Of a DNA stretch of 64,000 bases, positions 281 through 16,225 are shown piece after piece. The notes under the pieces were generated by a model. It was not told the origin of the DNA and ran no database searches. It saw only the letters and a list, made by a program, of their open reading frames with translations. Position numbers and translations under genes: made by a program. Source of the stretch: Patescibacteria group bacterium (lineage in GTDB: Bacteria > Patescibacteriota > Patescibacteriia > Buchananbacterales > UBA6539); contig JAVEXP010000003.1 of the NCBI GenBank assembly GCA_034003985.1, positions 58,643 through 122,642 on the forward strand, written 5' to 3'. Each line of letters begins with the position of its first letter. Position 1 is the stretch's first letter.

Positions 281-282
281 CT

Positions 283-345: not shown

Positions 346-560
346 GGCCGGGACTAAACTAATTGCCCAAACTTTAAGTAATAACTACGGAAAAAAAATA
401 AAGCGTTGGGTTCACGGTACACCTTCAATATTACGCTAACTTGGTGTATGCCCACAATAAATATGTTATCATTGAGAATATAACACAAAAAATTCAATAA
501 TTCAAGTCAAAAAAATATTGCCAACAGCTTGGTTTTGTGTCACAATAATAGCACCAAACT

Positions 561-1982
561 ATGATAACGCGTCCGGATCCAAATTTCTTGAGCGAGGAAG
601 ATAAAATCATCAAACCTCAGCGGCAAAAACTTAAAATTATCAGTAAAATAGCCATCTATTTACTGATAATTTTTGTTATCCTGTTTATTTTTTTTGGCAT
701 CGGCATGATCAGTTCCGGTGAAAATCTTTCCAAAACTTTGGGCAATGCCAGCTTATGGGGCCAGATCAGACATTTGATTGGCAGCGATGACAAAGCGCTG
801 CAGGGCGAAGATCGCGACCGAATCAACATTTTACTAATGGGCATGGGCGGACTGGAACACGATGGGCCATATCTGACCGATACAATCATGGTCGCCAGCT
901 ACAAACCCTCAACCAATCAAGTAGCAATGATCTCCCTGCCCCGTGACCTACTAGTCCAAATCCCGGGTTTTGGCTGGTATAAAATTAACCACGCCAATGC
1001 CTATGGTGAAATGAAAGAAGCTGGCCAGGGCGGCGAACTGGCTAAACAAGTTGTCAGCCAAACTTTGAATATACCGATTGACTATTATGTCCGAATTGAT
1101 TTTGCCGGCTTTAAACAAATTATTGACGATTTGGGAGGAATTACCGTTGAAGTCGAAAACCTCCTGGATGACGAAAATTACCCGATCCCCGGTCAAGAGA
1201 CGGCCACAACATCCAAACGCTACGAACATCTTTATATTGAGCCAGGGCGGCAACACATGAACGGTGACTTAGCCTTGAAATATGTTCGCAGCCGCCAAGC
1301 CAAAGGAATTGAGGGCTCTGATTTTGCCAGAAGTAAAAGGCAGCAACAAGTCTTAATGGCAGTTAAAAACAAAGGATTGTCATTTACTACCCTTGTTAAT
1401 CCTCACCGGATTGGCAAACTGATGGATACTTTAAGCCAACATCTGGCTACTGATTTTAAAGTTTGGGAAATCATCCGGCTATTCAATCTCGGCAAAGATA
1501 TTGAACCAGAAAATGTCGTCCGACAGGTTTTTGACGACGGGCCCGACGGGGTTCTTTATTCAACCATCCTGGAAAATGGCGCTTATGTCTTAAAACCCAA
1601 GGCCGGCAATTTTTCTGAAATGCAAATGATTGTTAATAACATTTTTGATCCGGATAAAATTGAGGCCCTAACCCCAAAAATGGTCGAAATCCAAAATGGC
1701 ACCAAAATCAGCGGTCTGGCTTTCCAAACTTCCCAATATCTCCAGAGCTTAGGATATCAAGTGGTCAAGATCGGCAATGCCCCAACTCAAGATTACCAAA
1801 AAACCGTTGTTTACAATCTGACGGAAAATCAAAATGACCCTACGGCCCAAACCATTGCTGAATTAATCAAGGCCCAATTGGCGACTGCCCTGCCAAGTTG
1901 GCTGACTGCCACCGACACCAAAGCCGTTGGCGGCCGGACCGAAATTCTGATAATCTTAGGACAGGACCGCAAAGACTTATGA
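561..1982 (+). CDS. LytR-CpsA-Psr (LCP) family cell-envelope phosphotransferase with an N-terminal TM anchor
   Basis: The 473-aa ORF has an N-terminal hydrophobic helix. Its LCP core reads INILLMGMGGLEHDGPYLTDTIMVASY...ISLPRDLLVQIPGFGWYKINHANAYG...YYVRIDFAGFKQIIDDLGGITV. A LytR_C-like C-terminal region follows. Confidence 0.8.
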   Translation: MITRPDPNFLSEEDKIIKPQRQKLKIISKIAIYLLIIFVILFIFFGIGMISSGENLSKTLGNASLWGQIRHLIGSDDKALQGEDRDRINILLMGMGGLEHDGPYLTDTIMVASYKPSTNQVAMISLPRDLLVQIPGFGWYKINHANAYGEMKEAGQGGELAKQVVSQTLNIPIDYYVRIDFAGFKQIIDDLGGITVEVENLLDDENYPIPGQETATTSKRYEHLYIEPGRQHMNGDLALKYVRSRQAKGIEGSDFARSKRQQQVLMAVKNKGLSFTTLVNPHRIGKLMDTLSQHLATDFKVWEIIRLFNLGKDIEPENVVRQVFDDGPDGVLYSTILENGAYVLKPKAGNFSEMQMIVNNIFDPDKIEALTPKMVEIQNGTKISGLAFQTSQYLQSLGYQVVKIGNAPTQDYQKTVVYNLTENQNDPTAQTIAELIKAQLATALPSWLTATDTKAVGGRTEILIILGQDRKDL

Positions 1983-3388
1983 ACCAAAAAATAACCATCA
2001 ATCAAAAATTACCAACGGTGGTAATCGTTGGTCGGATCAATGTCGGCAAATCAACCCTGTTTAACCGATTAACGGAAACCAGCAAGGCAATTATTTCACC
2101 GATTGAGGGCACAACCCGCGACTACAATCTAGGACAAGTGGCCTGGCGCAAAAAAATCTTTAACTTGATCGACAGCGGCGGAGTTAATATTGATATTCTC
2201 CAAAATAGCATCGTCAATCTGATTAACGAAAAACCGCTCCAAAACCTTAAACCAAATATAATTGAACAAGAAATAATCAAACAAACCAAAACTGCGCTAG
2301 CCAAAGCTAATTTAATAATTATGGTCACCGACGGCAAAACCGGCGTATTGCCCGAAGACCGACAGTTGGCGATAACTTTAAAAAAAATGGCCAAGCCGGT
2401 GATTTTGGTGGTCAATAAAATTGATCGGCAATCTCAGGCCGCTAGTACCGCCGAATTTTTCAAACTGGGACTCGGCAAACCTTGGCCGGTATCGGCCGCC
2501 AGCGGCAGCCAAGTCGGCGACTTTTTGGACGAATTGGTAAAACAAATAAAATGGCCGCGGGGACGGCAACCCAATGTTAAGGATCAAACGGCAATAAAAG
2601 TGGCTTTAATCGGCAAACCAAATGTTGGCAAATCATCATTGGTCAATAAAATGTTAGGTGAAGAACGAGTAATTGTTTCACCGCTGGCACAAACCACCAG
2701 AGAACCTCAGGATACCGAAATTATTTTTGACAAACAACACATTATTATAATTGATACGGCCGGACTGAGAAAAAAAACCAAGGTGCACGAAACTTTGGAG
2801 AAAATCGCCACCAAAAAAACTCAAAGGATGATTGAACAAGCCGACATCGTTTTATTGGTGACCGAAGCCAACGAGCCGCTGGCTAAACAAGACGCTTACC
2901 TGGCCGGATTATTGAAAGACCAGGGAGTGGGAGTAATTGTTGTCGCCAACAAATGGGACTTAATTGCGAACAAGACTACCAACACCGACCAACAGGTAAA
3001 AAATTATTACCAGGGTGAATTTGCCTATTTAAGTTTTGCACCATTGATTTTCGTCTCCGCTCAAACCGGCAAAAATGTCGACAAAATTCTGCCGCTGATT
3101 TTGGAAGTAAATCAAGAAAGCACCAAAAAAGTAAGCCCCGAAGATCTGGAAAAATTGACAACCGCGTTAGTTAGACATCACCGCCCGGCCCAAGCCAAAG
3201 GCAACAGCCGACCAAAAATTTATGGCCTGACCCAAAGCGGCGTCAAACCACCGACTTTCACAATTACCGTTGGACCCAGACAAAGCCTCCACTTTTCTTA
3301 TATACGATTCATCGAAAATCAATTGCGCCACAACTTTGGCTTTAAGGGTATTCCTGTTAGAATAAGGACAAGAAGCCTAAAACAATAA
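1979..3388 (+). CDS. der: Ribosome-biogenesis GTPase Der (EngA), two tandem GTPase domains plus a KH-like domain
   Basis: The ATG overlaps the upstream TGA stop (ATGA). Two P-loops are present (GRINVGKSTLFN and GKPNVGKSSLVN), with DTAG and NKxD motifs in each domain. Confidence 0.9.
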   Translation: MNQKITINQKLPTVVIVGRINVGKSTLFNRLTETSKAIISPIEGTTRDYNLGQVAWRKKIFNLIDSGGVNIDILQNSIVNLINEKPLQNLKPNIIEQEIIKQTKTALAKANLIIMVTDGKTGVLPEDRQLAITLKKMAKPVILVVNKIDRQSQAASTAEFFKLGLGKPWPVSAASGSQVGDFLDELVKQIKWPRGRQPNVKDQTAIKVALIGKPNVGKSSLVNKMLGEERVIVSPLAQTTREPQDTEIIFDKQHIIIIDTAGLRKKTKVHETLEKIATKKTQRMIEQADIVLLVTEANEPLAKQDAYLAGLLKDQGVGVIVVANKWDLIANKTTNTDQQVKNYYQGEFAYLSFAPLIFVSAQTGKNVDKILPLILEVNQESTKKVSPEDLEKLTTALVRHHRPAQAKGNSRPKIYGLTQSGVKPPTFTITVGPRQSLHFSYIRFIENQLRHNFGFKGIPVRIRTRSLKQ

Positions 3389-3389
3389 T

Positions 3390-3959
3390 ATGAAGCTGAT
3401 CGCCGGATTGGGAAATCCCGGAACAAAATATGAAAACACCTGGCACAATGTCGGTTTTTTAATGATTGACGAATTACACAAAAATTATGCCGGGGTTGAG
3501 GCTGAATTTAAAAACAGCAAAAAATTCAAATCCTTGGTATACGAATGCAACCAAGTTGAAGATAAAATAATTCTGGCCAAACCTCAAACTTTCATGAATA
3601 ATTCCGGCCAAGCCGTCAGTATTTTAGCCGGCTTTTACAAGATAGCTAAAAATGACTTGTGGGTGATTCACGATGATATTGATTTACCGTTAGGAACAAT
3701 TCGCATTTCCCAAAATGCTTCGGCTGCTGGCCATCGCGGAGTCCAATCAATCATTGATCAACTAAACACTCAGGAATTTGTACGATTTCGAATTGGCATC
3801 AGACCAACAGACCTACGGCAACCGACCGAAGAGTATGTCTTGCAAAATATCAACAAGCAAGGTAAATTGGAAATCGAACAGGCTGCGAAATTACTGCTAG
3901 GAGCAATCGAAATAAGTTTAAGCCAGGGAATTTCGGAAGCCATGAACGAATTTAATTAA
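3390..3959 (+). CDS. pth: Peptidyl-tRNA hydrolase
   Basis: The N-terminus MKLIAGLGNPGTKYENTWHNVGF matches the Pth signature GLGNPG..Y..TRHN.GF. The 189-aa length is typical. Confidence 0.9.
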   Translation: MKLIAGLGNPGTKYENTWHNVGFLMIDELHKNYAGVEAEFKNSKKFKSLVYECNQVEDKIILAKPQTFMNNSGQAVSILAGFYKIAKNDLWVIHDDIDLPLGTIRISQNASAAGHRGVQSIIDQLNTQEFVRFRIGIRPTDLRQPTEEYVLQNINKQGKLEIEQAAKLLLGAIEISLSQGISEAMNEFN

Positions 3960-4011
3960 CTAAAAATTTTAAAAAACATAGCGCCAAACCAAAGGCGTTT
4001 TTTTATTAAAA

Positions 4012-4148
4012 AAGTAGCTTCCAAAAACCTGCATACCAGCGTAAGAGGACTTAATCGAAAAACGATAAGCCGCTTAGCTTGTGGCCTGGACAGATTAGGA
4101 GGGTTAATCTGACCGTGGCCGCTGGTAGACAGGTTTTCAAAAGCTACT
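4012..4148 (+). ncRNA. Candidate structured small RNA or cis-regulatory leader of unknown class
   Basis: Nested long-range complementarity is visible. AGTAGCTT (4012-4019) pairs with AAGCTACT (4141-4148). AAAACCTG pairs with CAGGTTTT, and ACCAGCG pairs with CGCTGGT. Internal hairpins CTTAATCG/CGATAAG and GGACAGATT/AATCTGACC give a three-way junction. No ORF with an RBS is present. Confidence 0.4.
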
Positions 4149-4208
4149 ATCCATATAACAGATATCATACATTAACACAGTTAGTTAAAAAAGTCAAGGA
4201 TAAATAAA

Positions 4209-5312
4209 ATGACTAAATTATCAAAAAATGATGACTTGCCTTATTGGGTTGGCTTTAGTTTGATTAGTAATTTGGGGCCTAAAAATTGGCAACGAATAAT
4301 AAGATATTTTCCCGATTTGAAAACCGCCTGGCAAGCCGAGGTCAAAGAAATAATAAAAGCCGGACTAAACGAAAAACTGGCCAATGAAATTCATTCAAAA
4401 AGATTAGAGATTGAACCCGACCTGGAATGGCAAAAATTAATTGATCAAAAAATTAAGGTAACAACCTGCCTGGATGAGCAATACCCAAAATTATTAAAGG
4501 AAATTTATGACCCTCCTCCCCTCCTTTATTACCGAGGTAATTTTAATTTAAATCAGGATTTTTGTTTGGCAGTTGTCGGCAGCCGCCGGATTGGCAATTA
4601 CGGAAAACAAGTCACCGAGGAATTAGTCGGCCAGTTGAGCCAGCGCGGATTGACTATTGTCTCAGGCCTGGCTTTGGGAGTTGACGCCTGCGCCCATCAA
4701 GCCGCTATCAATAATCACGGCAAAACAGTGGCGGTTTTGGGTTCAGGTCTCCAACGGATTTATCCGGCAAGCAACACAAAACTGGCTGAACAAATAATTA
4801 ATAGGAACGGCGCGATTATTTCGGAATTCCCGTTGGGTACCTTGCCATTAAAATATAACTTCCCCCGGCGCAACCGAATTATTTCCGGCTTAAGCCTAGG
4901 GGTTTTGATTACTCAAGCCAAAGAAAAATCCGGTGCCTTAATTACCGCCGATTACGCTTTGGAACATAACCGCGAAGTCTTTGCGGTGCCGGGAAATATT
5001 TTTCAGGAAGGCAGCTTTGGACCGCACCGTTTAATCAAGGCGGGAGCCAAACTGGTTGAAACAGCTCAAGATATTTTGGAAGTTTTGAATTTAGAAAGTA
5101 TTAAAGAATTAAAAATTGCCAATCAGGTTTTGCCCACCAACTCCACCGAAGAAAAAATAATTGAGATTTTAAAAACCGAACAAATGCACATTGACAAAAT
5201 AGCAAGATACGCTAGACTTGATATCAGTATTATTAATGCCACTTTAAGTGTCATGGAAATGAAAGGTTTGATAAAACATTTGGGCGGCAGTAACTACGCA
5301 AAAACCAGATGA
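4209..5312 (+). CDS. dprA: DNA-processing protein DprA (Smf)
   Basis: The Rossmann-like DprA core reads LAVVGSRRIGNYGKQVTEELVGQLSQRGLTIVSGLALGVDACAHQAAI...TVAVLGSGL..IYPASN. A C-terminal winged-helix-like tail follows. Confidence 0.85.
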   Translation: MTKLSKNDDLPYWVGFSLISNLGPKNWQRIIRYFPDLKTAWQAEVKEIIKAGLNEKLANEIHSKRLEIEPDLEWQKLIDQKIKVTTCLDEQYPKLLKEIYDPPPLLYYRGNFNLNQDFCLAVVGSRRIGNYGKQVTEELVGQLSQRGLTIVSGLALGVDACAHQAAINNHGKTVAVLGSGLQRIYPASNTKLAEQIINRNGAIISEFPLGTLPLKYNFPRRNRIISGLSLGVLITQAKEKSGALITADYALEHNREVFAVPGNIFQEGSFGPHRLIKAGAKLVETAQDILEVLNLESIKELKIANQVLPTNSTEEKIIEILKTEQMHIDKIARYARLDISIINATLSVMEMKGLIKHLGGSNYAKTR

Positions 5313-6097
5313 AAAAAATAACTCAACAAGATAAAATATATCTGCTATTCGCTTTGTTTATCGGAGCGCTATTAAGCGCCAATTTTTTGGGCGCTAAAAT
5401 AACAGCTTTTAGCTTGCCAATAATTCTAGCCTGGCCGCTAAACATTATTTTTTGGCCGCTGATATTTATCATTAATTTGGCAGCCAGTCCATTTGGCAGC
5501 TACTCCCTGTTTGAATCACCGATACTGGCTTATAATTTTTTTGATGTTGTCCATGTGTCAGTGGGAATTTTAACCGTACCAATAATGTTTTTGGTAACCG
5601 ATATTGTTGAAGAGGTTCTGGGCAAAGAAACAGCTAAAAAATTTATCAACGCCGCGTTAATCGTGATGATCTTCACCGTCATAATCACCGCCGTTTCAGT
5701 TTGGCTACCCGCCGACCCCAGTCGCCAATATTTTTCCCAGGAAGCCTACGCCAACATCTTTGCCGTGACTATCAGAATGAGTATTGCCTCAATTATTGCT
5801 TTTATTCTGGCTCAATATCATGATCTTTGGGCCTTCAATTTTTGGAAAGAAAAAACCGGCGGGCGCTGGTTATGGCTGCGCAACAATGCTTCGACCATTG
5901 TTTCCCAGTTGATTGATTCAACCGCTTTCATGTTTATTGCTTTTTACGGCTTAACACCAAAATTCAATATTCTTTATATTATCTCATTAATCATCCCCTA
6001 CTGGATTTTCAAAATTCTCTTTGCATTAATAGACACTCCGTTTGCCTATCTGGGAGTCAGATGGTTGAAGACCGAAAAAAACAATAAACAAAATTAA
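5309..6097 (+). CDS. Queuosine-precursor transporter (YhhQ/Vut_1 family) integral membrane protein
   Basis: The protein has multiple TM helices. FLVTDIVEEVLGKETA and AQYHDLWAFNFWKEKTGGRWLWLRNNASTIVSQLIDSTAFMFIAFYG mirror YhhQ motifs (FLATDLTVRIFG; LDVHVFNRLRQ..WW.APTASTLFGNVSDTLAFFFIAFW). Confidence 0.65.
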   Translation: MKKITQQDKIYLLFALFIGALLSANFLGAKITAFSLPIILAWPLNIIFWPLIFIINLAASPFGSYSLFESPILAYNFFDVVHVSVGILTVPIMFLVTDIVEEVLGKETAKKFINAALIVMIFTVIITAVSVWLPADPSRQYFSQEAYANIFAVTIRMSIASIIAFILAQYHDLWAFNFWKEKTGGRWLWLRNNASTIVSQLIDSTAFMFIAFYGLTPKFNILYIISLIIPYWIFKILFALIDTPFAYLGVRWLKTEKNNKQN

Positions 6098-7390
6098 ATG
6101 AAGGCTAACAACTTTCAAGCTTACTTGGCGGCGGTAAAATATTTGGAATCAATCCAAAATATCGCCCAAGACGATTATTTCATCAAAAAAACCGGGCGCT
6201 CAATTTTTTTAAAACGCATGGGCGCGTTACTAAAAGAGTTAGGCAATCCTCACTTGGGCGTAAATTATATCCATATTGGCGGCACCTCAGGCAAAGGTTC
6301 GGTGGCCAACATGATCCAGTCAATCCTAACTCAAGCCGGATATAAAACCGGCTTATTTACTTCACCTTACCCAACCACTTCAATCGAAAAGATAAAAATT
6401 AACAAGCAGTTAATTAGTCCTGATGAGTTTGCCAAGCTGACGGAAAAAATAAAACCAGCAGTCGACCGGGTTTACCTTAGATCGCCTTATGGCCGACCTT
6501 CCTACTTTGAAATTTTTACGGCCATTGGTTTTTTGTATTTTAAACAACATCATTGCGACTATGTCGTTTTGGAAGTCGGCTTGGGCGGGCGACACGATGC
6601 GACCAACATTATCCCTCAGGCCGATATCACGGTAATCAATCGAATTGGCTACGATCATACTGAAATCCTAGGAAAAACTTTAAGTCAAATTGCCAAAGAA
6701 AAAGCCGCCATCATCAAGCCCCGAACCATTTTTTTTACCACCAATCAAAATAGCCCAAAAGTCCTAAACATTTTTAAAGAAGCTTGCCGAAAAAATCAAG
6801 TACCATTTAATGTGGTAAAAACGCCAACAACACGGTATCAGCTCAAACTTTTGGGAGAACACCAACAAGACAATGCCCAAATTGCCGAGCAGGTCGCCAG
6901 ATATTTGAAAATTGACAATCAAACGATCAGAACCGGTTTAAGCAAGGTAAAAATGTCTTGTCGAACCGAAATTATCCAAACTAAACCGCTGGTAATTTTG
7001 GACGGCGCTCACAATCAATCAAAAATTAAAACCACTTTACAAATTATTGATAATTTGACATACCAAAAACTTTATCTTATTATTGCCTTAACCAATGAAC
7101 GAAACGCTACGGAAATTTTCAAAGAAATCAGCACCAAGGCTGATCAAATAATAATTACCCGCCATTTATCGCCAAGTCGTCGATGCTACCCGCCAAAAAA
7201 AATAGCGGCGAAGTTGAAAAGTAAAAAGCCGATTATGATATTTCTGGATCCGTTTCAAGCACTCAAACAAGCTTTAAATCAAGCGAACAAAAATGATTTA
7301 ATCTTGGTAACCGGATCATTTTATTTGGCAGGGCTGCTGCGCCAACATTGGCGAGATGAATCTAAAATATTAACTGAACGAAAAATATAA
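6098..7390 (+). CDS. folC: Folylpolyglutamate synthase / dihydrofolate synthase (Mur ligase family)
   Basis: A P-loop-like HIGGTSGKGSVANMIQSIL and the VLEVGLGGRHDATNII Mur-ligase central-domain motif are present. The 430-aa size fits. Confidence 0.8.
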   Translation: MKANNFQAYLAAVKYLESIQNIAQDDYFIKKTGRSIFLKRMGALLKELGNPHLGVNYIHIGGTSGKGSVANMIQSILTQAGYKTGLFTSPYPTTSIEKIKINKQLISPDEFAKLTEKIKPAVDRVYLRSPYGRPSYFEIFTAIGFLYFKQHHCDYVVLEVGLGGRHDATNIIPQADITVINRIGYDHTEILGKTLSQIAKEKAAIIKPRTIFFTTNQNSPKVLNIFKEACRKNQVPFNVVKTPTTRYQLKLLGEHQQDNAQIAEQVARYLKIDNQTIRTGLSKVKMSCRTEIIQTKPLVILDGAHNQSKIKTTLQIIDNLTYQKLYLIIALTNERNATEIFKEISTKADQIIITRHLSPSRRCYPPKKIAAKLKSKKPIMIFLDPFQALKQALNQANKNDLILVTGSFYLAGLLRQHWRDESKILTERKI

Positions 7391-9612
7391 TGAAGGGAAA
7401 AAATTTGGTGATTGTTGAATCACCGACCAAGGCCAAAACTATTTCAAAATTTTTGGGGTCCGAATACAAAATCGAATCCTCTTTTGGTCATATCCGCGAT
7501 CTGCCAAAAAGCAAACTGGGAGTTGATGTTGAACACAACTTTGAACCCCAATATGTCATTCCCACCAAATCGCGCCAGCGAGCCAATGAATTAAAAAAAC
7601 TGGCCGACAAAGCCCAGACGATTTATTTCGCAACTGACGAAGACCGCGAAGGCGAAGCCATCTCCTGGCATTTGGTTAATATTTTTAAGACTCCCCAGGA
7701 TAAAGTTAAAAGAATTGTTTTTCACGAAATTACCGAAGAAGCAATCAAAGAAGCTTTAAAAAATCCGCGGACATTGGATTTGAATTTAGTTGACGCCCAA
7801 CAGGCCAGACGAGTCTTGGACCGGCTGGTCGGCTACCAGCTCTCCCCGTTCTTATGGAAAAAGGTGGCGCGCGGCCTTTCGGCCGGACGGGTTCAATCAG
7901 TGGCAGTCAGACTGATTGTTGAACGCGAACGAGAAATTCAAGCTTTTAAACCAGAAGAATATTGGAGTATTGAAAGTATTTTTGAAGCCCAGGGCACAAA
8001 GTTTGAATCTAAACTCCATAAAATTAAAGATCAGGTTATTGATAAGCTGGAGATCAAAAATCAGGCTCAGGCTGAAAATATTATTAAAGATTTAACAGGC
8101 GCCAAATACCAAATCGAAAAAGTCGAAAAACGCCAAACCAAAAAGCGGCCGCTACCGCCTTTTACCACTTCCACCTTACAACAGGCGGCTAACGCCCGCT
8201 TAGGTTTTTCGGCCAAACAAACGATGATGCTGGCCCAACAATTATATGAAGGTATCGAGCTTGGTTCCGGCGGCGTTGGTTTAATCACCTACATGCGAAC
8301 CGACTCTTTGAATTTGGCCCAAAAATTCCTAGACGAAGCCGGCAATTATATTAAAGATAAATTCGGCAATAATTACCACGACGAACCCAAACGATACAAA
8401 GCCAAATCAAAGTTGGCCCAAGAAGCTCATGAAGCAATCAGGCCAACTCTGGCCGAAAATGCACCGGAAAAAATCAAACCACATTTAAATGAAAGGCAGT
8501 TCAAGCTGTATCAGTTGATTTGGCAGCGAGCCATTGCCAGCCAAATGGCTGACGCGATCACCGACAACACCACTGTTGACATCAAAGCGGCCGATACGGT
8601 TTACACTTTCCGCAGCACCGGTTCGGTTATAAAATTTGACGGCTTTTTGAAAGTTTACCCAACCAACACCAAAGAAAATATTTTGCCCGATGTTGAAGAA
8701 AAAGATCAAGTCAATTTGGTTGAGCTTAAGCCGGAACAGCATTTCACCCAACCACCGGCCAGATATTCGGAAGCCACGCTGGTCAAAGCTTTGGAAGAAT
8801 ACGGCATTGGCCGACCGTCAACTTACGCGCCGACCATTTCCACCGTCCAAGATCGAGGGTATGTTGAAAAAGAAGACAAGCGCCTTAAACCAACCGACAT
8901 TGCTTATTTGGTAAACGATTTGCTGGTTGAACACTTCCCCGAAATTGTCGACTATAAATTCACAGCCAATATGGAGGATGACTTGGACGAAATTGCCGAG
9001 GGTAAAAAGAAATGGCAGCCGATTATCCACGAATTCTGGGGGCCGTTTAAAACCAACTTGGACAAAAAAGAATTGGAATTAGACAAAAAGAAATTGACCG
9101 AAGAAAAAACCGATGAAGTTTGCGAGAAATGCGGTAAACCAATGGTAATTAAAATTGGACGGTATGGAAAATTCTTAGCTTGCACCGGCTATCCGGACTG
9201 TAAAAATACCAAGCAGCTTGGCGGCGAAGGCAATGAACCACAAACTCCAGAAGTAACCGGCGAGACCTGCCCGGACTGCGGCAAGCCGTTAGTCAAACGC
9301 CGTGGACGCTTTGGCGAGTTTGTCGGCTGCAGCGGTTATCCTGATTGTAAATATATTAAAAAAGAAGCAGCTCAAACTTTTGGCACTTGCCCGAAATGCG
9401 GCAAAGGTAAAATTGTTGGCAAACGCAGCCGCCGCGGATTTTTCTATGCTTGCGACCAGTACCCGGAATGTAAAAATGCCTTATGGGGCAAGCCACACAT
9501 TAAAGAAGGAAAAACTGAACCAGAGACTTGCCCGGACTGCGGCGCAATTTTAGTGGAAGGCGGCAAAGACGCAATTAAATGTAGCAATAAAGATTGCAGC
9601 TATAAAGAATAA
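7390..9612 (+). CDS. topA: DNA topoisomerase I with multiple C-terminal C4 zinc ribbons
   Basis: A Toprim N-terminus (VIVESPTKAKTI) and the active-site region ITYMRTDS are present. There are four or five C-terminal CxxC..CxxC zinc-ribbon repeats (CEKCGKPM..CTGYPDCKN, CPDCGKPL..CSGYPDCKY, CPKCGKGK..CDQYPECKN, CPDCGAIL). Confidence 0.9.
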   Translation: MKGKNLVIVESPTKAKTISKFLGSEYKIESSFGHIRDLPKSKLGVDVEHNFEPQYVIPTKSRQRANELKKLADKAQTIYFATDEDREGEAISWHLVNIFKTPQDKVKRIVFHEITEEAIKEALKNPRTLDLNLVDAQQARRVLDRLVGYQLSPFLWKKVARGLSAGRVQSVAVRLIVEREREIQAFKPEEYWSIESIFEAQGTKFESKLHKIKDQVIDKLEIKNQAQAENIIKDLTGAKYQIEKVEKRQTKKRPLPPFTTSTLQQAANARLGFSAKQTMMLAQQLYEGIELGSGGVGLITYMRTDSLNLAQKFLDEAGNYIKDKFGNNYHDEPKRYKAKSKLAQEAHEAIRPTLAENAPEKIKPHLNERQFKLYQLIWQRAIASQMADAITDNTTVDIKAADTVYTFRSTGSVIKFDGFLKVYPTNTKENILPDVEEKDQVNLVELKPEQHFTQPPARYSEATLVKALEEYGIGRPSTYAPTISTVQDRGYVEKEDKRLKPTDIAYLVNDLLVEHFPEIVDYKFTANMEDDLDEIAEGKKKWQPIIHEFWGPFKTNLDKKELELDKKKLTEEKTDEVCEKCGKPMVIKIGRYGKFLACTGYPDCKNTKQLGGEGNEPQTPEVTGETCPDCGKPLVKRRGRFGEFVGCSGYPDCKYIKKEAAQTFGTCPKCGKGKIVGKRSRRGFFYACDQYPECKNALWGKPHIKEGKTEPETCPDCGAILVEGGKDAIKCSNKDCSYKE

Positions 9613-9626
9613 AAATCAGCTAAACA

Positions 9627-9655
9627 AAAAATCCCGCGACAGCGGGATTTTTTGT
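9627..9655 (+). terminator. Rho-independent terminator of topA
   Basis: Stem ATCCCGC, loop GACA, stem GCGGGAT, followed by a TTTTTT run. Confidence 0.7.
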
Positions 9656-10063
9656 ATCCTTAACAAAAGTTTAGTTAGGTCATAAAATTGCGGCCATTGA
9701 ATAAGACACGACGGACAGCGCCAGATAAACCGGCAAAACAATTGTTGCGGTCAGCACGGTAAAGGCGCGAGTAATGTCAAAATCCATGTCTTGAGCCTGC
9801 TGGAGTTGTTGGCAATCCATAAATTTTTGTTTTTATTTTTTAGTTTCAATTTTTAAGGTTCAAAAAACACGGCTAAACCAAAGTTGTAATTGCGTCCGAA
9901 AGCCGTGTTCTACTTTTTTGGTTTTTTGTTTTATTTAGCCCACAAAATGTTTAGGGGCAAACGCTGCTGGTATTAACCAGTCAGGCAATCTAAAAAGATA
10001 GGGGTTCCCTATCTCAATATAATCAGTATAGCACATCTAAATTTTTTTGTCAAGATTTTAAAA

Positions 10064-10105
10064 TAAAAAAAGACCGGCGCATCGCTTGTTTGCAACGCGC
10101 CGGCA
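10064..10105 (-). terminator. Rho-independent terminator of the GC-rich secreted-protein gene
   Basis: GC-rich stem GACCGGCGC...GCGCCGGC with a 16-nt loop, followed on the minus strand by a T-run (A-run 10064-10071 on the + strand). Confidence 0.65.
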
Positions 10106-10155
10106 CTAAAGAGTTTGACTGTTTTTCGACCTTCAAAGGGTCGATAGCAGCACTG

Positions 10156-11571
10156 CTACTGAATGGGAATGGTGAGGTGAGCCAACGGCTCTACCTCGTT
10201 GCCCGCGCCGTCGGTAAATACCGGCGGACGATTGATGCAGGGGACCTGCCCGCACATTTCGGCGACGGTGTCGGACTGCACCAAGAACAACTCCAGACGA
10301 ACCGCGTCCGAATCCGGCGCAAACGAGATGTCCCAGGTTCCACCGACAATCGGCGAGTAGGCCTCGTCGCCGAAGTTCGGCTTGGCGTAATACGCCTCGT
10401 AGGTTCCGCCGTCACCGTCCGGGTGCTGGGTTACCGAGAACAGCACCAGATCGGCGCAGTTGGCCAAGGACTCAAGGTCCGGGCCAAAAATAACGCCATG
10501 CGACTGCGTGCCGTCGACTTCCGTCGAGAATAAAGTGTACTCGTTGAGATACACCTGCTCGCACGGAAGCAGCTCTCCTTCGCCTTCTCCTTCGCCTTCG
10601 CCCTCACCGGACACATCTTCCTCAAACACGGCTCGCACGGTCTTGTCGCCATCCACGGTTAAGGTGGTAGGATTGGTGGTGCCGGAGACATCCCCCTCCC
10701 AGTGGTCAAAGCGCCAACCAAAGCCATGAATGGCCCAGACTTGCACTTCGGTGCCAGCAGAAAAGTCACACACATGGGCATAGCCACATGGTGCGGGGTC
10801 CGTGGATATTGATCCATCGCCAACGACTTCCTTGGTGACGGTAAAGGTTTGGGTCTCACCTTCGCCCTCACCGGACTCAACACCGGTGACGGTAACGCTC
10901 TGGGAGCCCAACTGGCCGCAGTCATTGCTGACCACGACATACCAAGTCTGAGCCTGGTTGGTAACCCCCACCGAGAGAGGACTGGCGTCTATCGGGCCGA
11001 GAGACAAACCATCTTCTACCCGCCGCCATGAATACATCAGCGTTGGCGTTCCAGTTGCCTCAACATCCAGCGTCACCGTTTCGCCGACCATGGCTTCAAC
11101 CGACTGAGGTTGAACCGTGATTTGTGGCGCTTCGCACTCACCTTCGCCCTCACCTTCCGAGGAACAAGGGCCGGTGGAAACCCAGATCTGAACGGTCACA
11201 CCCGCTTCCACCTCCTGGCCCTGCCCGGGAGAACAGGCAAAAACCACTCCCGGCGCGACATAGTCATGACATTCGTGGGTCACGCTCGTTTGGAAACCGA
11301 GCAGCTCCAACGAAGTCCGAGCCTGGGCTTCCGTCAGTCCCAGCAACACGGGCACCATCACGGCATCCGACTGCCCGGGGCAAAAGCCGTCTTCTGTGGC
11401 TTCGGTCGGGCAATAGTGATACCCGTCCGAGTTGAAGAACTGGATGACGCGCAACAGCTCCGAGAGTTCGATGCGGCTGTCCTCGTTGATATCCGCATCA
11501 TGAAACACCTGAGCCTGCGCCGGGGCCATCATGAAGACGGCCGTCATCACTGCCAAGAACAATTTTCTCAT
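10156..11571 (-). CDS. GC-rich secreted multi-domain surface protein: signal peptide, EF-hand/dockerin-like Ca-binding motif, PASTA domain, I-set Ig-like domain and InlB B-repeat domain, joined by (GE)n linkers
   Basis: A signal peptide MRKLFLAVMTAVFMMAPAQA is preceded by an AAAGGGAAAG RBS. The Ca-binding motif reads DADINEDSRIELSELLRVIQFF. The PASTA-like region reads LGLTEAQARTSLELLGFQTSV...VTVQIWVS. The Ig-like domain reads PQITVQPQSVEAMVGETVTLDVEATGTPTLMYSWRR...WYVVVSNDCGQLGS. The InlB-B-repeat-like domain reads GDGSISTDPAPCGYAHVCDFSAGTEVQVWAIHGFGWRFDHWEGDVSGTTNPTTLTVDGDKTVRAVF. SGEGEGEGEGEGE linkers join the domains. Codon usage is strongly GC3-biased, unlike neighbouring genes. Confidence 0.7.
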   Translation of the reverse strand: MRKLFLAVMTAVFMMAPAQAQVFHDADINEDSRIELSELLRVIQFFNSDGYHYCPTEATEDGFCPGQSDAVMVPVLLGLTEAQARTSLELLGFQTSVTHECHDYVAPGVVFACSPGQGQEVEAGVTVQIWVSTGPCSSEGEGEGECEAPQITVQPQSVEAMVGETVTLDVEATGTPTLMYSWRRVEDGLSLGPIDASPLSVGVTNQAQTWYVVVSNDCGQLGSQSVTVTGVESGEGEGETQTFTVTKEVVGDGSISTDPAPCGYAHVCDFSAGTEVQVWAIHGFGWRFDHWEGDVSGTTNPTTLTVDGDKTVRAVFEEDVSGEGEGEGEGEGELLPCEQVYLNEYTLFSTEVDGTQSHGVIFGPDLESLANCADLVLFSVTQHPDGDGGTYEAYYAKPNFGDEAYSPIVGGTWDISFAPDSDAVRLELFLVQSDTVAEMCGQVPCINRPPVFTDGAGNEVEPLAHLTIPIQ

Positions 11572-12296
11572 CGCACTTTCCCTTTTTGTTACTAACCAGA
11601 CCACCACGACAAACCCTATTGCCGCAACGGACTAGCCATTTCTGAATTGTATATGGGCACTAACCAAGCACTCCTAGAATTTAATTTCTAGGACTTAGTT
11701 AGAATCTTACTTTTTATCATAAAATCAATATTTTGTCAATAGCAAGCATTATAAATCACTAATTTTAGCAAATTTACTCCATAATAAAAGCGGCCGAAAG
11801 AGAGTTAAACCCCGAAACTTTGTTGATGCTAGGGTGCTCCTTTCGAGCCGCAAAATCATAATACCATAAAAATTGGCTGATACAAAAATAACGGGTCGTT
11901 GGCGATTTGCCGCTGACCCGTGATTTGACCTGTTGTCTCAGTTTTTTCCCGTTTTTAAAGCGGTGCGGGCGCCGCTTCTATTTTTTTGTCTGCACTCTAG
12001 GGCAATCAAGATGGGCAGATCTCTAGCCCATAGCGCAAACGCGGATAGCTTAGCGATCCGCTAAATCGCCAGGCAAATTAAGAGAGGCTCAAGCCTCTCC
12101 CCCGGGGCCGCCTGGCCCTCCCCGAGTTACTGGGTGCTCTTGTGCATGGACCCTCCTCCCTCATCAGTTGTTGAAAGCTTCACCAAAACCACAGCAATTA
12201 GCAGACTAACAAAAAACACCAACCAAGTCAATAATATTTACAGCTATGGTAAAGACGGCTAAGATAAAAGCAACCACACTAAACGGAGGAGTGCCA

Positions 12297-12473
12297 ATGA
12301 AGAATACTGATGATGGCGACAAATCATTGGATTTTTACAGCCTACTGGAAGAGGGAATGTTTGCGGAGGGACAACAGTGGCCTTGGTTTGAATGCCCAGA
12401 TTTGCGGTTCAGACATCAGCTGAACCAAAAGACCTTGAGATCAATTCCTCAGACAGCAGACTATTCAAACTAA
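12297..12473 (+). CDS. Small hypothetical protein (58 aa) in a GC-elevated region
   Basis: ATG is preceded by GGAGGAG at a 6-nt spacing. The product is MKNTDDGDKSLDFYSLLEEGMFAEGQQWPWFECPDLRFRHQLNQKTLRSIPQTADYSN. A perfect 13-bp hairpin follows immediately (12480-12508). No recognisable domain. Confidence 0.35.
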   Translation: MKNTDDGDKSLDFYSLLEEGMFAEGQQWPWFECPDLRFRHQLNQKTLRSIPQTADYSN

Positions 12474-12479
12474 ACTAAT

Positions 12480-12508
12480 GGGCCCGGTTGGCAAAGCCAA
12501 CCGGGCCC
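12480..12508. terminator. Perfect 13-bp GC-rich hairpin (GGGCCCGGTTGGC-aaa-GCCAACCGGGCCC), likely a bidirectional terminator or insulator
   Basis: Read directly from the sequence. No strong T-run on the + side. Confidence 0.5.
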
Positions 12509-12739
12509 TCATTAATTGAACGAAAAGAAACCAACAAAAAAATAAGTTATAAAGAAAACACCTCGAAGTAAAACCACAAGGTGTTTCCCAAGTTTCTAGG
12601 TTATACCTAGCATCAACAAACCAATCCTAGCACAACTCTTAATTTTTGTCAAGCTTTAACCGAATTTAAAATCATCCATCAAAATTGCTTTTTGGGCTTA
12701 AGTCTTTTACAATAACTAAGGCGAATAAATAAAAAATCC

Positions 12740-14263
12740 ATGCCAACAATTGATGATTTGATAAAAGCCCTAAAAAACGGCGATGGTCAAAGAAACCAGC
12801 CAAAAATCCCCTTCCCCAACTTCAATCGGAATAACAAGAATGGGTATGATTTTGATTTCATTAAATTAGCCTACGAATACTCCGAGCAGGCCCATCATGG
12901 TCAAACGCGCAAATCCGGCGAGCCATATATTCAGCATCCTTTGCGAACCGCCATTCAATTGGCCAACATGAAGCTTGACCAAGCAACAATTATCGCCGGA
13001 TTATTACATGATGTTCCCGAGGACACTGACTACAGTTTGGTTGATATTGAGAAAAATTTTGGCCCCGAAATCGCCAAATTGGTTGGCGGCATCACCAAAC
13101 TTGGCATCATTAAATATCGTGGGATTGAGAAATATGCGGAAAATCTGCGCAAGATGTTTGTCTCCATGGCCCAGGACATCAGAATCATCCTGATTAAGAT
13201 GGCCGATCGACTGGACAACTTGCGAACCCTTGATGCCTTGCCCAAAGAAAAACAAAAACGGATTGCGGCTGAAAGCCTGGAAATCTATGCCCCGATTGCC
13301 AACCGTTTGGGTATGGGATCAATCAAAGGTGAAATTGAAGACTTGGCTTTTCCTTATGTTTACCCGGAAAAGTACCAATGGCTGGAACAAGAAATCATAC
13401 CAGCCATTAAAGTTGAAATGGAATACATCCAAAAAGTAATCAAAACCATTGAAAAAGAACTCAGACAAAATAAAATCAAGATTGTTTCGATTCATGGCCG
13501 GGCCAAACGGCTTTACAGCCTCTACCGCAAATTGATCAGGCCGCAATACGACGGCGATGTCTCCAAAATTTATGATTTGGTGGCTCTAAGAATACTGGTC
13601 CCAACCGTCGGCGATTGTTATCACGCTTTGGGAATTGTCCATGAAAATTGGAAACCTCTGCCGGGCAGAATTAAGGACTACATTTCCCAGCCAAAACCAA
13701 ACGGTTATCAATCACTACACTCCACCGTTTTTGGTCCGGAGGGCAAGATTGTCGAAGTTCAAATCAGGACTCCAGAAATGCACCATCAAGCCGAGTTTGG
13801 TATCGCCGCCCACTGGCACTACAAAGAAACCAATCATAGATCAAAAAAACTTGGCGACAAGGGCTATACCCTGCCAAAAAAATTGGACTGGGTCCAAGAT
13901 TTGGTAAAATGGCAGGAAGAAATCAGGGACAACGAACAATATCTTAAAGCTCTGACTTTGGATTTTTTCCAGAATCGAATTTTTGTTTTCACTCCCAAGG
14001 GTGATGTCATTGACCTGCCTGAAAATGCCACGCCGGTTGATTTTGCTTATCATGTCCACAGTTGGATCGGCGATCATTGTGTTGGCGCCAAAATCAACGG
14101 CCAAATAACCAGTCTGGATGATAAATTAAAAAACGGCGATGTCGTCGAAATCATCACCGATAAAAATCGCAAAGGCCCCAGCCGGGACTGGCTTAAATTT
14201 GTCAAAACCGGCGCAGCCAAAGGAAAAATCAAATCAAAATACCTCAGCCAGATAATCGACTGA
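12740..14263 (+). CDS. rel: Short RelA/SpoT-homolog (p)ppGpp synthetase/hydrolase with HD, synthetase and TGS domains, lacking the C-terminal ACT/regulatory region
   Basis: The HD motif HHGQTRKSGEPYIQHPLRTA...LLHDVPEDT is followed by the synthetase region RAKRLYSLYRKL...DLVALRILV and the TGS domain FVFTPKGDVIDLPENATPVDFAYHVHSWIGDHCVGAKINGQ. The 507-aa length ends about 40 aa after TGS. Confidence 0.8.
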   Translation: MPTIDDLIKALKNGDGQRNQPKIPFPNFNRNNKNGYDFDFIKLAYEYSEQAHHGQTRKSGEPYIQHPLRTAIQLANMKLDQATIIAGLLHDVPEDTDYSLVDIEKNFGPEIAKLVGGITKLGIIKYRGIEKYAENLRKMFVSMAQDIRIILIKMADRLDNLRTLDALPKEKQKRIAAESLEIYAPIANRLGMGSIKGEIEDLAFPYVYPEKYQWLEQEIIPAIKVEMEYIQKVIKTIEKELRQNKIKIVSIHGRAKRLYSLYRKLIRPQYDGDVSKIYDLVALRILVPTVGDCYHALGIVHENWKPLPGRIKDYISQPKPNGYQSLHSTVFGPEGKIVEVQIRTPEMHHQAEFGIAAHWHYKETNHRSKKLGDKGYTLPKKLDWVQDLVKWQEEIRDNEQYLKALTLDFFQNRIFVFTPKGDVIDLPENATPVDFAYHVHSWIGDHCVGAKINGQITSLDDKLKNGDVVEIITDKNRKGPSRDWLKFVKTGAAKGKIKSKYLSQIID

Positions 14264-15104
14264 CTAAATTATCCAGTTCTTCGCTTGAAAAAAATTCAAT
14301 CACAATTTGTCCGGATTCTCCGGATTTTTTGACATTAACCTTAGTGCCTAACGCGGCCTGCAGCCGGTCTTCCAAGGCGGTAATATTGGGATCCTTGGCC
14401 CGGCGAACATGGCGGCGAACAACAATTTTTTTGGCCTGATTTTCTGCGGCTCTAACCGTCAAATCCTGTTTCAAAACTTTCTGAAAAAATTTCAAGCGTT
14501 CCTGGGGAGGCAGACCAACAATCAAGCGCGCCGTGCTAAAGTTAATTTTACCGCTGGCTAAAGCTTTCTGAATTTCTGTCGGCAAAGTCAGCAACCGCAA
14601 AATATTGGTAACCGCCGAGCGGCTTTTGCCGACCCGCTTTGCCGCTTCTTCCTGAGTCAGACTAAATTCATCAATCAAGCGCTGATAAGCCACGGCTTCT
14701 TCAATCGGGGTTAAATCCTTACGCTGAATATTTTCAACTAAGGCTAATTCAAGCTTCTGCTGTTCGGCTAAATTACGAATGATGGCTGGAACCGTCTTTA
14801 ATTCCAAAATTTGAGAGGCGCGCAATCGTCGTTCACCGGCAATCACTTCATAATTATCACCACTGGGAACCAAGATTAACGGCTGTAAAATACCATGTTC
14901 CTTAATGGAATTGGTAAGCTCTTCCAAACTCTCATGATCAAAACTACTGCGCGGCTGTAAAGGATTAGCCTTAATTTTATTAATTGGCACTTGGGCAATT
15001 GATTCAGAAATCAGAATTTTTGAATCCTGCGGGATGATTTGTTTGTCGATTTTAGGCGGAATTAAGGAGCCTAGCCCCTTGCCTAGACCTTGAGGTTTTG
15101 CCAT
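14244..15104 (-). CDS. parB: Chromosome partitioning protein ParB (Spo0J)
   Basis: ParB box GILQPLILVP...YEVIAGERRLRASQILELKTVPAIIRNL with an HTH. The 3' end overlaps rel convergently by 20 bp. Confidence 0.9.
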   Translation of the reverse strand: MAKPQGLGKGLGSLIPPKIDKQIIPQDSKILISESIAQVPINKIKANPLQPRSSFDHESLEELTNSIKEHGILQPLILVPSGDNYEVIAGERRLRASQILELKTVPAIIRNLAEQQKLELALVENIQRKDLTPIEEAVAYQRLIDEFSLTQEEAAKRVGKSRSAVTNILRLLTLPTEIQKALASGKINFSTARLIVGLPPQERLKFFQKVLKQDLTVRAAENQAKKIVVRRHVRRAKDPNITALEDRLQAALGTKVNVKKSGESGQIVIEFFSSEELDNLVSRLSG

Positions 15105-15107
15105 AGT

Positions 15108-15881
15108 TTAAAAAATATAATTTTCTTGCTCAATTATTTCCCCGGCAAGCTGCTCGTAAGCCTTGCCACCAGGAGAACTTGAATCATAAGATAAAATTGT
15201 CTGACCATAACTAGGCGATTCGGTCAGCCGGACATTGCGCGGAACGATGGTACTAAACAACCGGTGCGGAAAATGTTGACGCAGCTCTTCCAAAACCTGA
15301 AAAGAAAGCTTGTTGCGCTTGTCATACATGGTAACCACGGCACCCAAGATGGTTAATTCCGGCCGTAAATTTTCCTTAACCAGATTAACGGTGTTAAGCA
15401 ATTGACCCAAGCCTTCCAAAGCCAAATATTCGGCCTGGACCGGGATCATCACTTCTTTAGCCGCCACTAAGCCGTTAATAGTCAATAGATCCAAAGACGG
15501 CGGACAGTCAATCAAGATATAATCATAGTCGTTGCTGACTTCCAGCAAAGAATCGCGCAGCTTATACTCTCGATTTTCCGCGCCGACTAGTTCAACCCGG
15601 GCACCGGCTAAATCCTGAGTCGAGGGGGCCAATTTATAACCCTGATGATGAGTACCAACCGTAATTTCCCGAAATGAAACGGGACTAAAAAGCGTATGGT
15701 ACACCCCTTTTTCCAACCCGGCAGGATTAACACCAAGGCCGGAGGTGGCATTGGCCTGCGGATCAAGATCAACTAACAAAACAAACTTACCCAGCCAAGC
15801 CAAGTAAGCTCCTAAGTTTACTGCAGTGGTCGTCTTACCAACACCACCTTTTTGATTAACGATCGCAATAATCCTTGCCAT
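15108..15881 (-). CDS. parA: Chromosome partitioning ATPase ParA (Soj)
   Basis: A deviant Walker A (IIAIVNQKGGVGKTTTAVNLGAYLA) and typical ParA downstream motifs are present. The gene lies directly upstream of parB. Confidence 0.9.
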   Translation of the reverse strand: MARIIAIVNQKGGVGKTTTAVNLGAYLAWLGKFVLLVDLDPQANATSGLGVNPAGLEKGVYHTLFSPVSFREITVGTHHQGYKLAPSTQDLAGARVELVGAENREYKLRDSLLEVSNDYDYILIDCPPSLDLLTINGLVAAKEVMIPVQAEYLALEGLGQLLNTVNLVKENLRPELTILGAVVTMYDKRNKLSFQVLEELRQHFPHRLFSTIVPRNVRLTESPSYGQTILSYDSSSPGGKAYEQLAGEIIEQENYIF

Positions 15882-15887
15882 AGCTTA

Positions 15888-15938
15888 ATTATAGTTGAAA
15901 AATAAACCTTTGACAATTATTATTTTTTTCATTATACT
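15888..15938. promoter_or_regulatory. Overlapping divergent consensus sigma70 promoters
   Basis: The + strand promoter is TTGACA (15910-15915), 17-nt spacer, TATACT (15933-15938). The minus-strand promoter for parA is TTGTCA (revcomp of 15911-15916), 17-nt spacer, TATAAT (revcomp of 15888-15893). Its -10 ends 6 nt before the parA ATG at 15881, with no SD upstream, implying a leaderless parA mRNA. Confidence 0.55.
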
Positions 15939-16139
15939 GTGTTTTGTAGTCGCTTAAGGCTCTTTTTGGTCTTTAGCTCCAATTTAAAATCGAACGGCGA
16001 CACCCTTTTCTGATAAGCCAATTGATAGCCCTTTTAAACTTATTTTAGTCGAACCTTATAAAAGCAGAAAGGAAGCCGGGAATAGAGAAAAATATCTCAA
16101 GTCAGGAAGCGGAAAAGAATTTTTAGAAAGCTTAATCAA

Positions 16140-16225
16140 GCCCGAGTGGCGGAACTGGTAGACGCGCACGACTCAAAATCGTGTGGACTCTGTCCGTGAG
16201 AGTTCGAGTCTCTCCTCGGGCACCA
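16140..16225 (+). tRNA. tRNA-Leu (anticodon CAA) with a long variable arm and encoded CCA
   Basis: Acceptor GCCCGAG/CTCGGGC, anticodon stem CACGA/TCGTG, loop CTCAAAA, variable-arm hairpin GGACTCTGTCC, T-arm GAGTTCGAGTCTC, ending ACCA. Confidence 0.85.

Follow-up and report, generated by a model that had tools for sequence, protein, structure and literature searches.

Type I dockerins, such as those of C. cellulolyticum Cel5A (2VN5) and C. thermocellum Xyn10B (2CCL), come from cellulolytic Firmicutes and are built of two tandem repeats of ~22 residues, each a loop-helix Ca2+ motif (F-hand) without the entering helix of an EF-hand; together they form one compact C-terminal domain on diverse secreted proteins. 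PASTA domains are known from PknB/Stk1 kinases and from PBP2x, and peptidoglycan stem peptides are an established ligand class of the PknB and PBP2x domains. A third extracellular module, the B-repeat (Flg_new_2), is found in bacterial surface proteins such as Listeria InlB, which also has leucine-rich repeats (LRR) and GW modules. Here we describe a minus-strand gene at 10156..11571 of a 64-kb stretch of contig JAVEXP010000003.1 (the whole stretch of DNA analysed, 64,000 nucleotides, is called the window below) from a bacterium of the Patescibacteria, or candidate phyla radiation (CPR). It encodes a secreted mosaic protein in which relatives of all three modules are joined. We read it as an acquired accessory gene of a Patescibacteria bacterium for a secreted multi-domain binding protein, with a proposed way of anchoring, and give this picture a probability of roughly 0.6; much of that weight lies on the acquired, secreted binding protein and not on the details of anchoring.

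Each module resembles its described counterpart in some respects and departs from it in others. The N-terminal F-hand of the window protein has the loop-helix motif of type I dockerins, and the wider family to which it appears to belong shares their two tandem repeats in one compact C-terminal domain on diverse secreted proteins. However, the window protein has a single repeat, at its N-terminus, and the family repeat is ~45 residues long, carries an additional GYHC...TEDG(F/Y)xPG hairpin with conserved Cys, has Glu (as EF-hands do) instead of Asp at loop position 12, and comes from Hydrogenedentota and the CPR. The PASTA domain gives a full-length Pfam match, as those of PknB/Stk1 and PBP2x do, but it is present once, in a secreted protein that is neither a kinase nor a penicillin-binding protein. 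Similarly, the B-repeat scores above the Pfam threshold and has the GWxFxxWxGD core, but it occurs in one copy, with no LRR or GW modules.

Similar in its parts list is the Hydrogenedentota protein P0005, annotated as 'PASTA domain-containing protein [Candidatus Hydrogenedentes bacterium]', which combines B-repeats, PASTA domains ending in STGPC, (E/G)-rich linkers and a module with the motif ELLRVIQFFN. Proteins of this type are 37-47% identical to the window protein per domain and 60-77% in the module. In contrast to the window protein, their order is reversed, with the module C-terminal and tandem, they carry many copies of the B-repeat and PASTA domains, and they have neither an immunoglobulin (Ig) domain nor a counterpart of the C-terminal domain of the window protein. 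Similar in plan are P0086 (312 aa), P0092 (505 aa, Candidatus Buchananbacteria) and the unassigned P0108, which have a signal peptide, a single hybrid repeat, a Gly-Glu (GE) linker and an Ig domain or B-repeat. The hybrid repeat, HxADxNxDxxIxLSELLRVIQ followed by GYHxCP..TEDGFCxG, is common to them and the window protein, and the Ig domain of P0092 is the sole sequence match to the window Ig domain among the retrieved homologues (28% identity). P0086 and P0092 differ in their other downstream domains, with no PASTA domain and no C-terminal domain of the window type, and their genes lie near the GC content of their own genomes. P0092 is encoded at a locus (L004 8297-11518, Candidatus Buchananbacteria) that holds two adjacent mosaic surface-protein genes with SGEGEGEGEGE-type linkers and Ig or Bact_surface_Ig-like domains; the second gene of the pair encodes a lipoprotein without the module, and both are flanked by glycosyltransferase genes on one side and a type IV pilus gene cluster on the other.

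Two identifications are added here. The 'EF-hand' piece would be the collapsed single repeat of a dockerin-like Hydrogenedentota family that has no Pfam or NCBIfam model, and the gene sits in what looks like an insertion hotspot between TopA and RelA.

Composition of the gene and its place in the genome

The coding sequence (10156..11571, minus strand) runs from an ATG at 11571 to a stop codon at 10156-10158 and encodes 471 residues; an alternative GTG start at 11607 would add 12 residues, and this 483-aa version is the one called in the Logan assembly. GC content is 0.59, and GC content at third codon positions (GC3) is 0.68. The other 46 open reading frames (ORFs) of the window have a GC content of 0.43 +/- 0.028 and a GC3 of 0.456 +/- 0.048, from which the gene deviates by +5.6 and +4.7 standard deviations (sd), respectively. 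In a 100-nt profile the GC step matches the ends of the ORF: GC rises from ~0.36-0.43 to 0.55-0.64 at the stop-codon end and, just upstream of the start codon, drops to 0.43-0.45 and then to 0.25-0.29. Just three further ORFs of the window have a similar composition, and these form a second GC-rich island (55648-60345). Synonymous codon usage of the gene correlates with that of 15 native genes at r = 0.54, compared with r = 0.83 for the three genes of the other island and r = 0.77 for the genes on a contig of 59% GC where module-bearing proteins are encoded. By its codon usage, the gene is foreign and did not evolve in this genome.

The window TopA and RelA are exact matches of MDX9893425.1 and MDX9893429.1 from a metagenome-assembled genome (MAG) of a 'Patescibacteria group bacterium' (contig of 195,734 bp), which identifies the host as a member of the Patescibacteria/CPR. 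We compared synteny in 80 Patescibacteria and other genomes, retrieved via TopA. The order DprA-(FolC)-TopA-RelA-ParB-ParA is kept in more than 15 of them. In most relatives examined the TopA-RelA gap measures 35-400 bp (269 bp in L008, 168 in L009, 175 in L013, 154 in L011 and 35 in L019) versus 3128 bp in the window, where a lineage-specific 3.1-kb filling (9613..12739, no strand) consists of the mosaic gene and ~1.6 kb of mostly non-coding DNA. No homologue of the mosaic gene was found at this gap among the relatives examined. Because two relatives hold unrelated minus-strand genes there, one for a 322-aa membrane-anchored protein (L007, 10251-11219) and one for an 823-aa acidic Ala/Glu-rich protein (L014, 3624-6095), the gap seems to be a hotspot at which lineage-specific genes insert repeatedly.

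A 27.6-kb contig in an independent Logan assembly (run SRR25572339) matches window 1-16173 with 100% identity and spans the island, which makes mis-assembly unlikely. A preliminary description, made from the letters of the sequence, had named mis-assembly at the junctions as one finding that would overturn it, and the identical assembly across both junctions speaks against such an error. It had described a gene of ~60% GC in a 40% GC genome of an ultra-small putative episymbiont. The ORF is real and has 59% GC in a window whose ORFs average 0.43, the host is assigned to the CPR by the MAG match through TopA and RelA, and a comparison of GC3 and codon usage, of the kind put forward there as a check, sets the gene apart from native genes in both respects. 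Its wording of a high-GC origin is too generic, as the gene can be linked through its N-terminal module with a Hydrogenedentota-centred family (see below). Three lines of evidence together argue that the gene was horizontally acquired: its composition is atypical, the relatives examined lack it at the syntenic site, and the relatives of its module are mostly Hydrogenedentota.

Several further features were seen in the inserted region. A 30-nt direct repeat, 77% identical between its copies (10029-10058 and 12628-12657), encloses the mosaic gene together with ~1 kb of non-coding DNA upstream of it. Both copies are themselves strong promoter-like sites on the minus strand (TTGACA-17-TATACT, 11/12 with TG, and TTGACA-17-TAGGAT), and the repeat may derive from duplication of a native promoter or mark the scar of an insertion. 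The repeat search at the locus gave no convincing target-site duplication or terminal inverted repeats. There are two small ORFs, one at 12297-12473 (plus strand, 58 aa, called in the Logan assembly) and one at 9680-9820 (minus strand, 46 aa, hydrophobic), neither with a Pfam match, and a non-coding patch of 60% GC at 12050-12180.

Export and domain layout of the protein

The protein starts with a Sec-type signal peptide (residues 1-20, MRKLFLAVMTAVFMMAPAQA; 11512..11571, on the minus strand like all parts of the protein below), recognized by direct reading and hydropathy as MRK, a hydrophobic core and AQA, with cleavage before the following Q. It is the sole hydrophobic segment of the protein, and the same two approaches revealed neither a lipobox nor a C-terminal anchor. 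The mature protein has a mass of ~48 kDa, a pI of 4.05 and 13 Cys.

Homologue, profile and fold comparisons place a single F-hand ('half-dockerin') module at residues 22-66 (VFHDADINEDSRIELSELLRVIQFFNSDGYHYCPTEATEDGFCPG; 11374..11508), with a 12-residue EF-hand-type loop (27-38), the helix SELLRVIQFFN and a Cys-bracketed tail, GYHYCP..TEDGFCPG. It is followed by a PASTA domain (residues 71-133; 11173..11361), seen with Pfam, NCBIfam and PDB: PF03793 aligns over model positions 1-64 of 64 at 40.8 bits (gathering threshold (GA) 23.2), the domain also aligns with the PASTA region of NF033483, and the PDB search gave weak PknB matches. Linker 1, SSEGEGEGE (11137..11163), lies between Cys136 and Cys146 and leads into an Ig-like domain of the I-set type (residues 147-231; 10879..11133). 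In Pfam this stretch stays just below GA, with 29.1 bits versus 30 for Ig_3 and 23.2 versus 23.7 for I-set, and only the N-terminal half of the models is covered; by phmmer, residues 148-225 match Ig domains in PDB (9c2d_S, E=1.7e-7; titin, 7e-7). After linker 2, ESGEGEGE (10855..10878, direct reading), Pfam identifies a divergent InlB B-repeat (Flg_new_2; residues 240-316; 10624..10854), with residues 270-318 matching positions 19-71 of the 73 in PF18998 at 30.5 bits (GA 23.6). Linker 3, EEDVSGEGEGEGEGEGE (10573..10623, direct reading), separates it from an orphan C-terminal domain of 138 residues (334-471; 10159..10572). Searches with this domain gave no usable family, and phmmer against 1.84 billion representatives returned three weak multi-repeat matches to Ig-repeat surface proteins. 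The domain is probably beta-rich and may be a divergent beta-sandwich.

From the letters, a clean signal peptide and four extracellular modules joined by SGEGEGEGEGE linkers had been predicted. Our analysis recovered the signal peptide, all four module types and three (Gly-Glu)n linkers, with PASTA and the B-repeat above GA and the Ig domain 0.5-0.9 bits below it but backed by the PDB match; the fifth, C-terminal domain had been missed.

The homologue search gave 306 database matches, most of them owed to the N-terminal module (residues 22-66). For PASTA and the B-repeat, the nearest counterparts are in module-bearing proteins (37-47% identity; 40-47% for the B-repeat). Exact-sequence look-ups gave no match for the 471-aa or the 483-aa product, and no collinear protein was found among 5.8 billion clusters. 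Scans with the whole protein gave no match in IMG/VR and nothing beyond B-repeat matches in JGI metagenome contigs, and tblastn against 50,697 phage records and 72,556 plasmids gave no match.

The N-terminal module and its family

In its database matches the module nearly always ends the protein as a tandem pair at the extreme C-terminus, with ~50 residues from one repeat to the next. E/G-rich linkers precede it there, and it is fused to diverse N-terminal domains, including LRR, Kelch, PASTA, B-repeats, carboxypeptidase, sulfatase, beta-helix and papain-like peptidase. Among the source-named matches, ~30 are from Candidatus Hydrogenedentes/Hydrogenedens, 3 from Patescibacteria (P0086, P0092 (Buchananbacteria) and P0205 (Paceibacterota)) and 1 each from Competibacteraceae and Kiritimatiellae, and locus tags (PLI09_ and PKI11_) point to several copies per MAG. 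Judged by these matches, the module is most at home in Hydrogenedentota. The tandem form, with ~95 residues and four conserved Cys, terminates hundreds of diverse, mostly Hydrogenedentota, secreted proteins (matches including P0126-P0245 and P0001-P0120) and looks like an undescribed docking or sorting tag. No dedicated model exists in Pfam-A (2025) or NCBIfam (2026), and literature searches on the motif and on Hydrogenedentes with dockerin returned nothing relevant.

We examined how far the module conforms to EF-hands and dockerins. By direct reading, the window loop, D27-I-N29-E-D31-S-R-I34-E-L-S-E38, is canonical at positions 1, 3, 5, 8 and 12 and continues into LLRVIQFFN. The window repeat scores 13.5-14.8 bits with the Pfam EF-hand models (E 0.04-0.06), below their GA of 25-30, and lacks both the entering helix and the paired second hand of a full EF-hand. 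Across the family, Pfam EF-hand models match 10-18 of 35 repeats, mostly below threshold, and a PDB search with a profile of all 35 retrieves EF-hand loops of troponin C and related proteins (E = 0.005). Dockerin_1 (PF00404, GA 22.9 bits) does not match the window copy and matches 5 of the 35 family repeats below threshold (best E = 0.032), with a few family members at E 0.03-0.09. A dockerin has two F-hands; the window protein has one repeat, and the wider family has two.

As a representative of the tandem form, the 97-residue module of P0142 was modelled with AlphaFold (AF2) from an alignment of 115 natural sequences. The model has a predicted local distance difference test (pLDDT) score of 97.4 and a predicted template modelling (pTM) score of 0.86, and runs twice through a loop, a helix of 12-13 residues and a short beta-hairpin. 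PDB chains listed in the fold comparison include 4dh2_D, 6kg9_A, 5nrk_B, 3ul4_B, 4fl4_A, 8ajy_D, 2y3n_D and 5n5p_D; the top four Foldseek matches are dockerins, but with E-values of 0.9-3, which are not significant. We treat the family module as dockerin-like in its modelled architecture, with two packed F-hands and a Cys-containing GYHC...TEDG(F/Y)xPG hairpin per repeat, and not as a demonstrated member of the dockerin family. For the element that the preliminary description had called EF-hand/dockerin-like, the EF-hand-type loop and the dockerin-like family agree with that name, and the window protein has a single repeat, not a pair.

The single repeat combines features of both halves of the tandem. 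Repeat 1 has the consensus HxADxNxDxxIxLSELLRVIQ ... GYHC-x3-5-TEDGYAPG, and repeat 2 has PHxSDYNPxDWxIxLSELLRLIQ ... GYHYCPxExTEDGFCPG. We derived position-specific matrices from 114 tandem modules and scored the single-copy proteins (the window protein, P0086, P0092 and P0108) with them. In all four, the head favours repeat 1 by 7-13 bits and the tail favours repeat 2 by 14-23 bits. We infer that the window F-hand is a collapsed dockerin-like tandem, which would have arisen when a deletion joined, in frame, its two SELLRxIQFFN helices, which are nearly identical. Each of the four proteins has the repeat at its N-terminus, immediately behind the signal peptide in three of them (the window protein, P0086 and P0092). 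Two of the four carry a Patescibacteria label. The closest relative of the window signal peptide and module is P0086 (64% over 64 aa). An rve-family transposase gene (L001 8901-9821) lies 180 bp upstream of the P0086 gene, consistent with mobility of such genes in the CPR. The Paceibacterota protein P0205 has the full tandem at its N-terminus.

Predicted expression signals

At the 3' end of the gene, a strong intrinsic terminator (10104..10073, minus strand) has a 13-bp stem with 9 G-C pairs, a 6-nt loop and then the T-run CTTTTTTTAT; its hairpin is located 52 nt beyond the stop codon. Upstream, a promoter scan places an AT-rich promoter-like site, TTGCTA-18-TATGAT (9/12 matches), at 11716..11745 (minus strand). 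Here the 16-mer CTATTGACAAAATATT (11727-11742, minus strand) is found, which occurs exactly twice in the window. Its second copy (60305-60320, minus strand) is upstream of the operon of the other GC-rich island, which encodes an SPFH-like protein, and outside the 16-mer the two upstream regions are unrelated. The putative 5' leader (11572..11715, minus strand) folds into two stable hairpins: the minimum free energy of the stretch 11572-11720 is -41.9 kcal/mol (z = -4.1), and 0 of 200 shuffles were as stable. Rfam gave no match above the gathering score around the locus, leader included. A GC-rich terminator of the gene's own, an AT-rich promoter and a 16-nt match to the SPFH-gene promoter had all been noted before and were found again here. 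The pairing of the promoter elements had to be revised, as TTGACA and TATGAT are 12 nt apart and TATGAT pairs with TTGCTA at a spacing of 18 nt.

Second GC-rich island and other secreted-protein genes

The second GC-rich island (55648-60345, minus strand; promoter region 60290-60330) has a GC content of 0.56-0.58 and a GC3 of 0.58-0.67. Its genes encode proteins of 494, 293 and ~610 aa, with a Pfam match, borderline to Band_7/SPFH, only in the last. In a search for a common donor of the two islands, this SPFH-like protein matched only itself among the 5.8 billion clusters. Directly upstream of the island, at its promoter end, lies a gene for a 134-aa T4SS_pilin protein (60395-60799, minus strand; E = 7e-10). 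This neighbour hints that the island may be part of a conjugative or secretion-system-associated element.

Elsewhere in the window, a 1279-aa secreted protein (21404-25243, minus strand) with PT-HINT/Vint, DUF4215 and CarboxypepD_reg/SdrD_B-like domains may be a polymorphic-toxin-like or Hint-containing surface protein. Its gene heads a run of three further signal-peptide-bearing ORFs without Pfam matches.

Proposed function, origin and alternative explanations

We propose that the mosaic gene is expressed from its native-type AT-rich promoter in the variable TopA-RelA gap, and that its product is exported by the Sec pathway. Cleavage of the signal peptide would leave a very acidic, disulfide-rich extracellular protein of the beads-on-a-string type, in which a single F-hand, PASTA, the I-set Ig domain, the InlB-type B-repeat and the orphan C-terminal domain follow each other from the N- to the C-terminus, set apart by extended (Gly-Glu)n spacers. 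Attachment to a cell envelope may be the task of the N-terminal end (F-hand and PASTA). There, stem peptides of peptidoglycan would be the ligand of PASTA, and the F-hand could add a Ca2+-dependent contact, in which it either pairs with a second F-hand as a homo- or heterodimer or binds a cohesin-like receptor; lone EF-hands tend to dimerise. A flexible stalk could then be formed by the Ig and B-repeat domains together with the GE spacers, with the orphan domain as a ligand-specific tip. As to origin, the single-repeat N-terminal architecture may circulate among CPR bacteria, with another CPR bacterium of higher GC content as the immediate donor; Patescibacteria loci of 55-60% GC do exist (L014, L018 and L046).

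Several observations weigh against this picture. The mosaic gene is flanked by no integrase, att site, transposase, tRNA gene or terminal repeats, and no close homologue of its product was found in proteins (5.8 billion clusters) or DNA loci. The codon likeness to high-GC contigs does not name a donor and may partly mirror GC content. A Pfam search of ten window proteins that are secreted or large gave no Cohesin match, and the window copy has one of the two repeats that a dockerin requires. A full-length single-sequence AF2 model of the mosaic protein was unusable (pLDDT 32.7). The putative adhesin role, suggested in the preliminary description, is deduced from the signal peptide and the domain repertoire, as is any ligand.

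Four other explanations were weighed and are given in order of declining probability. The first, which we consider unlikely, goes further than ours: Hydrogenedentota would use the tandem module, across the phylum, as an undescribed dockerin-like system that docks many secreted proteins onto one shared surface receptor, CPR bacteria would have captured this tag, directly or via other CPR, and the collapsed half-dockerin at the N-terminus of secreted adhesins would plug into a receptor of a Hydrogenedentota host and so tether the episymbiont. Its appeal lies in the distribution of the module, which is overwhelmingly associated with Hydrogenedentota, sits on very diverse domains as a docking or sorting tag would, is present in several copies per MAG with a predicted dockerin-like fold, and is sporadic in the CPR (the window protein, P0086, P0092 and P0205); the likeness of the PASTA and B-repeat domains to module-bearing proteins fits as well. 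However, no receptor is known, the CPR form is only half a dockerin, and the nearest relative of the window module is another CPR protein. Moreover, the module proteins that match best were found in samples other than this one (DRR330606, GCA_964466925), and literature linking CPR and Hydrogenedentota was not found.

It is improbable, in our estimate, that the gene belongs to a native, fast-evolving and vertically inherited family of CPR surface proteins, with its high GC content due to a local bias in mutation or to the amino acids encoded. Amino-acid content has little influence on GC3, which is as far above that of the genome as given above; codon usage departs from that of native genes, none of the relatives examined has the gene at the syntenic site, and no orthologue exists among the 5.8 billion protein clusters. 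What the idea does accommodate is that other Patescibacteria encode a signal peptide, a single module, a GE linker and an Ig domain or B-repeat (P0086 and P0092), that these CPR genes are themselves mildly raised in GC (0.47 versus 0.44 and 0.52 versus 0.46), and that the neighbouring Buchananbacteria lipoprotein combines an SGEGEGEGEGE linker with Ig domains.

An origin as cargo of a phage or another mobile element, for example as a tail-fibre- or receptor-binding-like remnant of an element to which the second GC-rich island is also owed, would explain why the two islands share codon usage and an exact 16-mer in their promoter regions, and it could draw on the T4SS-pilin gene next to the second island, on the transposase next to P0086 and on the best PDB match of the Ig domain, a phage tail protein (9c2d_S). 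We find it quite improbable, as Ig domains on phage tails are generic, the phage, plasmid and IMG/VR searches were negative, and the locus has no integrase, terminal repeats or tRNA target.

Hardly credible is a chimera of assembly or binning in which a high-GC fragment was spliced into a CPR contig, since, despite the sharp GC step at both ORF ends, the DNA on either side comes from one conserved syntenic block, the insert is equipped with a terminator and an AT-rich promoter of native style, and a second assembler gave the identical sequence over 16 kb.

Implications

The hosts of most Patescibacteria, and the means by which these bacteria attach, are unknown. Read as an acquired gene for a secreted binding protein, the mosaic gene would be a clean and well-delimited case of a CPR genome gaining a foreign secreted multi-domain protein. 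If the N-terminal tag does not mediate docking, there is still a documented TopA-RelA hotspot that collects lineage-specific surface genes in Patescibacteria. If it does, the tag would give a handle both on the surface organization of Hydrogenedentota, which may include a non-cellulosomal system of the cohesin-dockerin kind, and on partner recognition by the CPR. And if CPR bacteria indeed captured this tag to dock onto Hydrogenedentota, it would be a marker from which the host of a CPR episymbiont could be read in its sequence.

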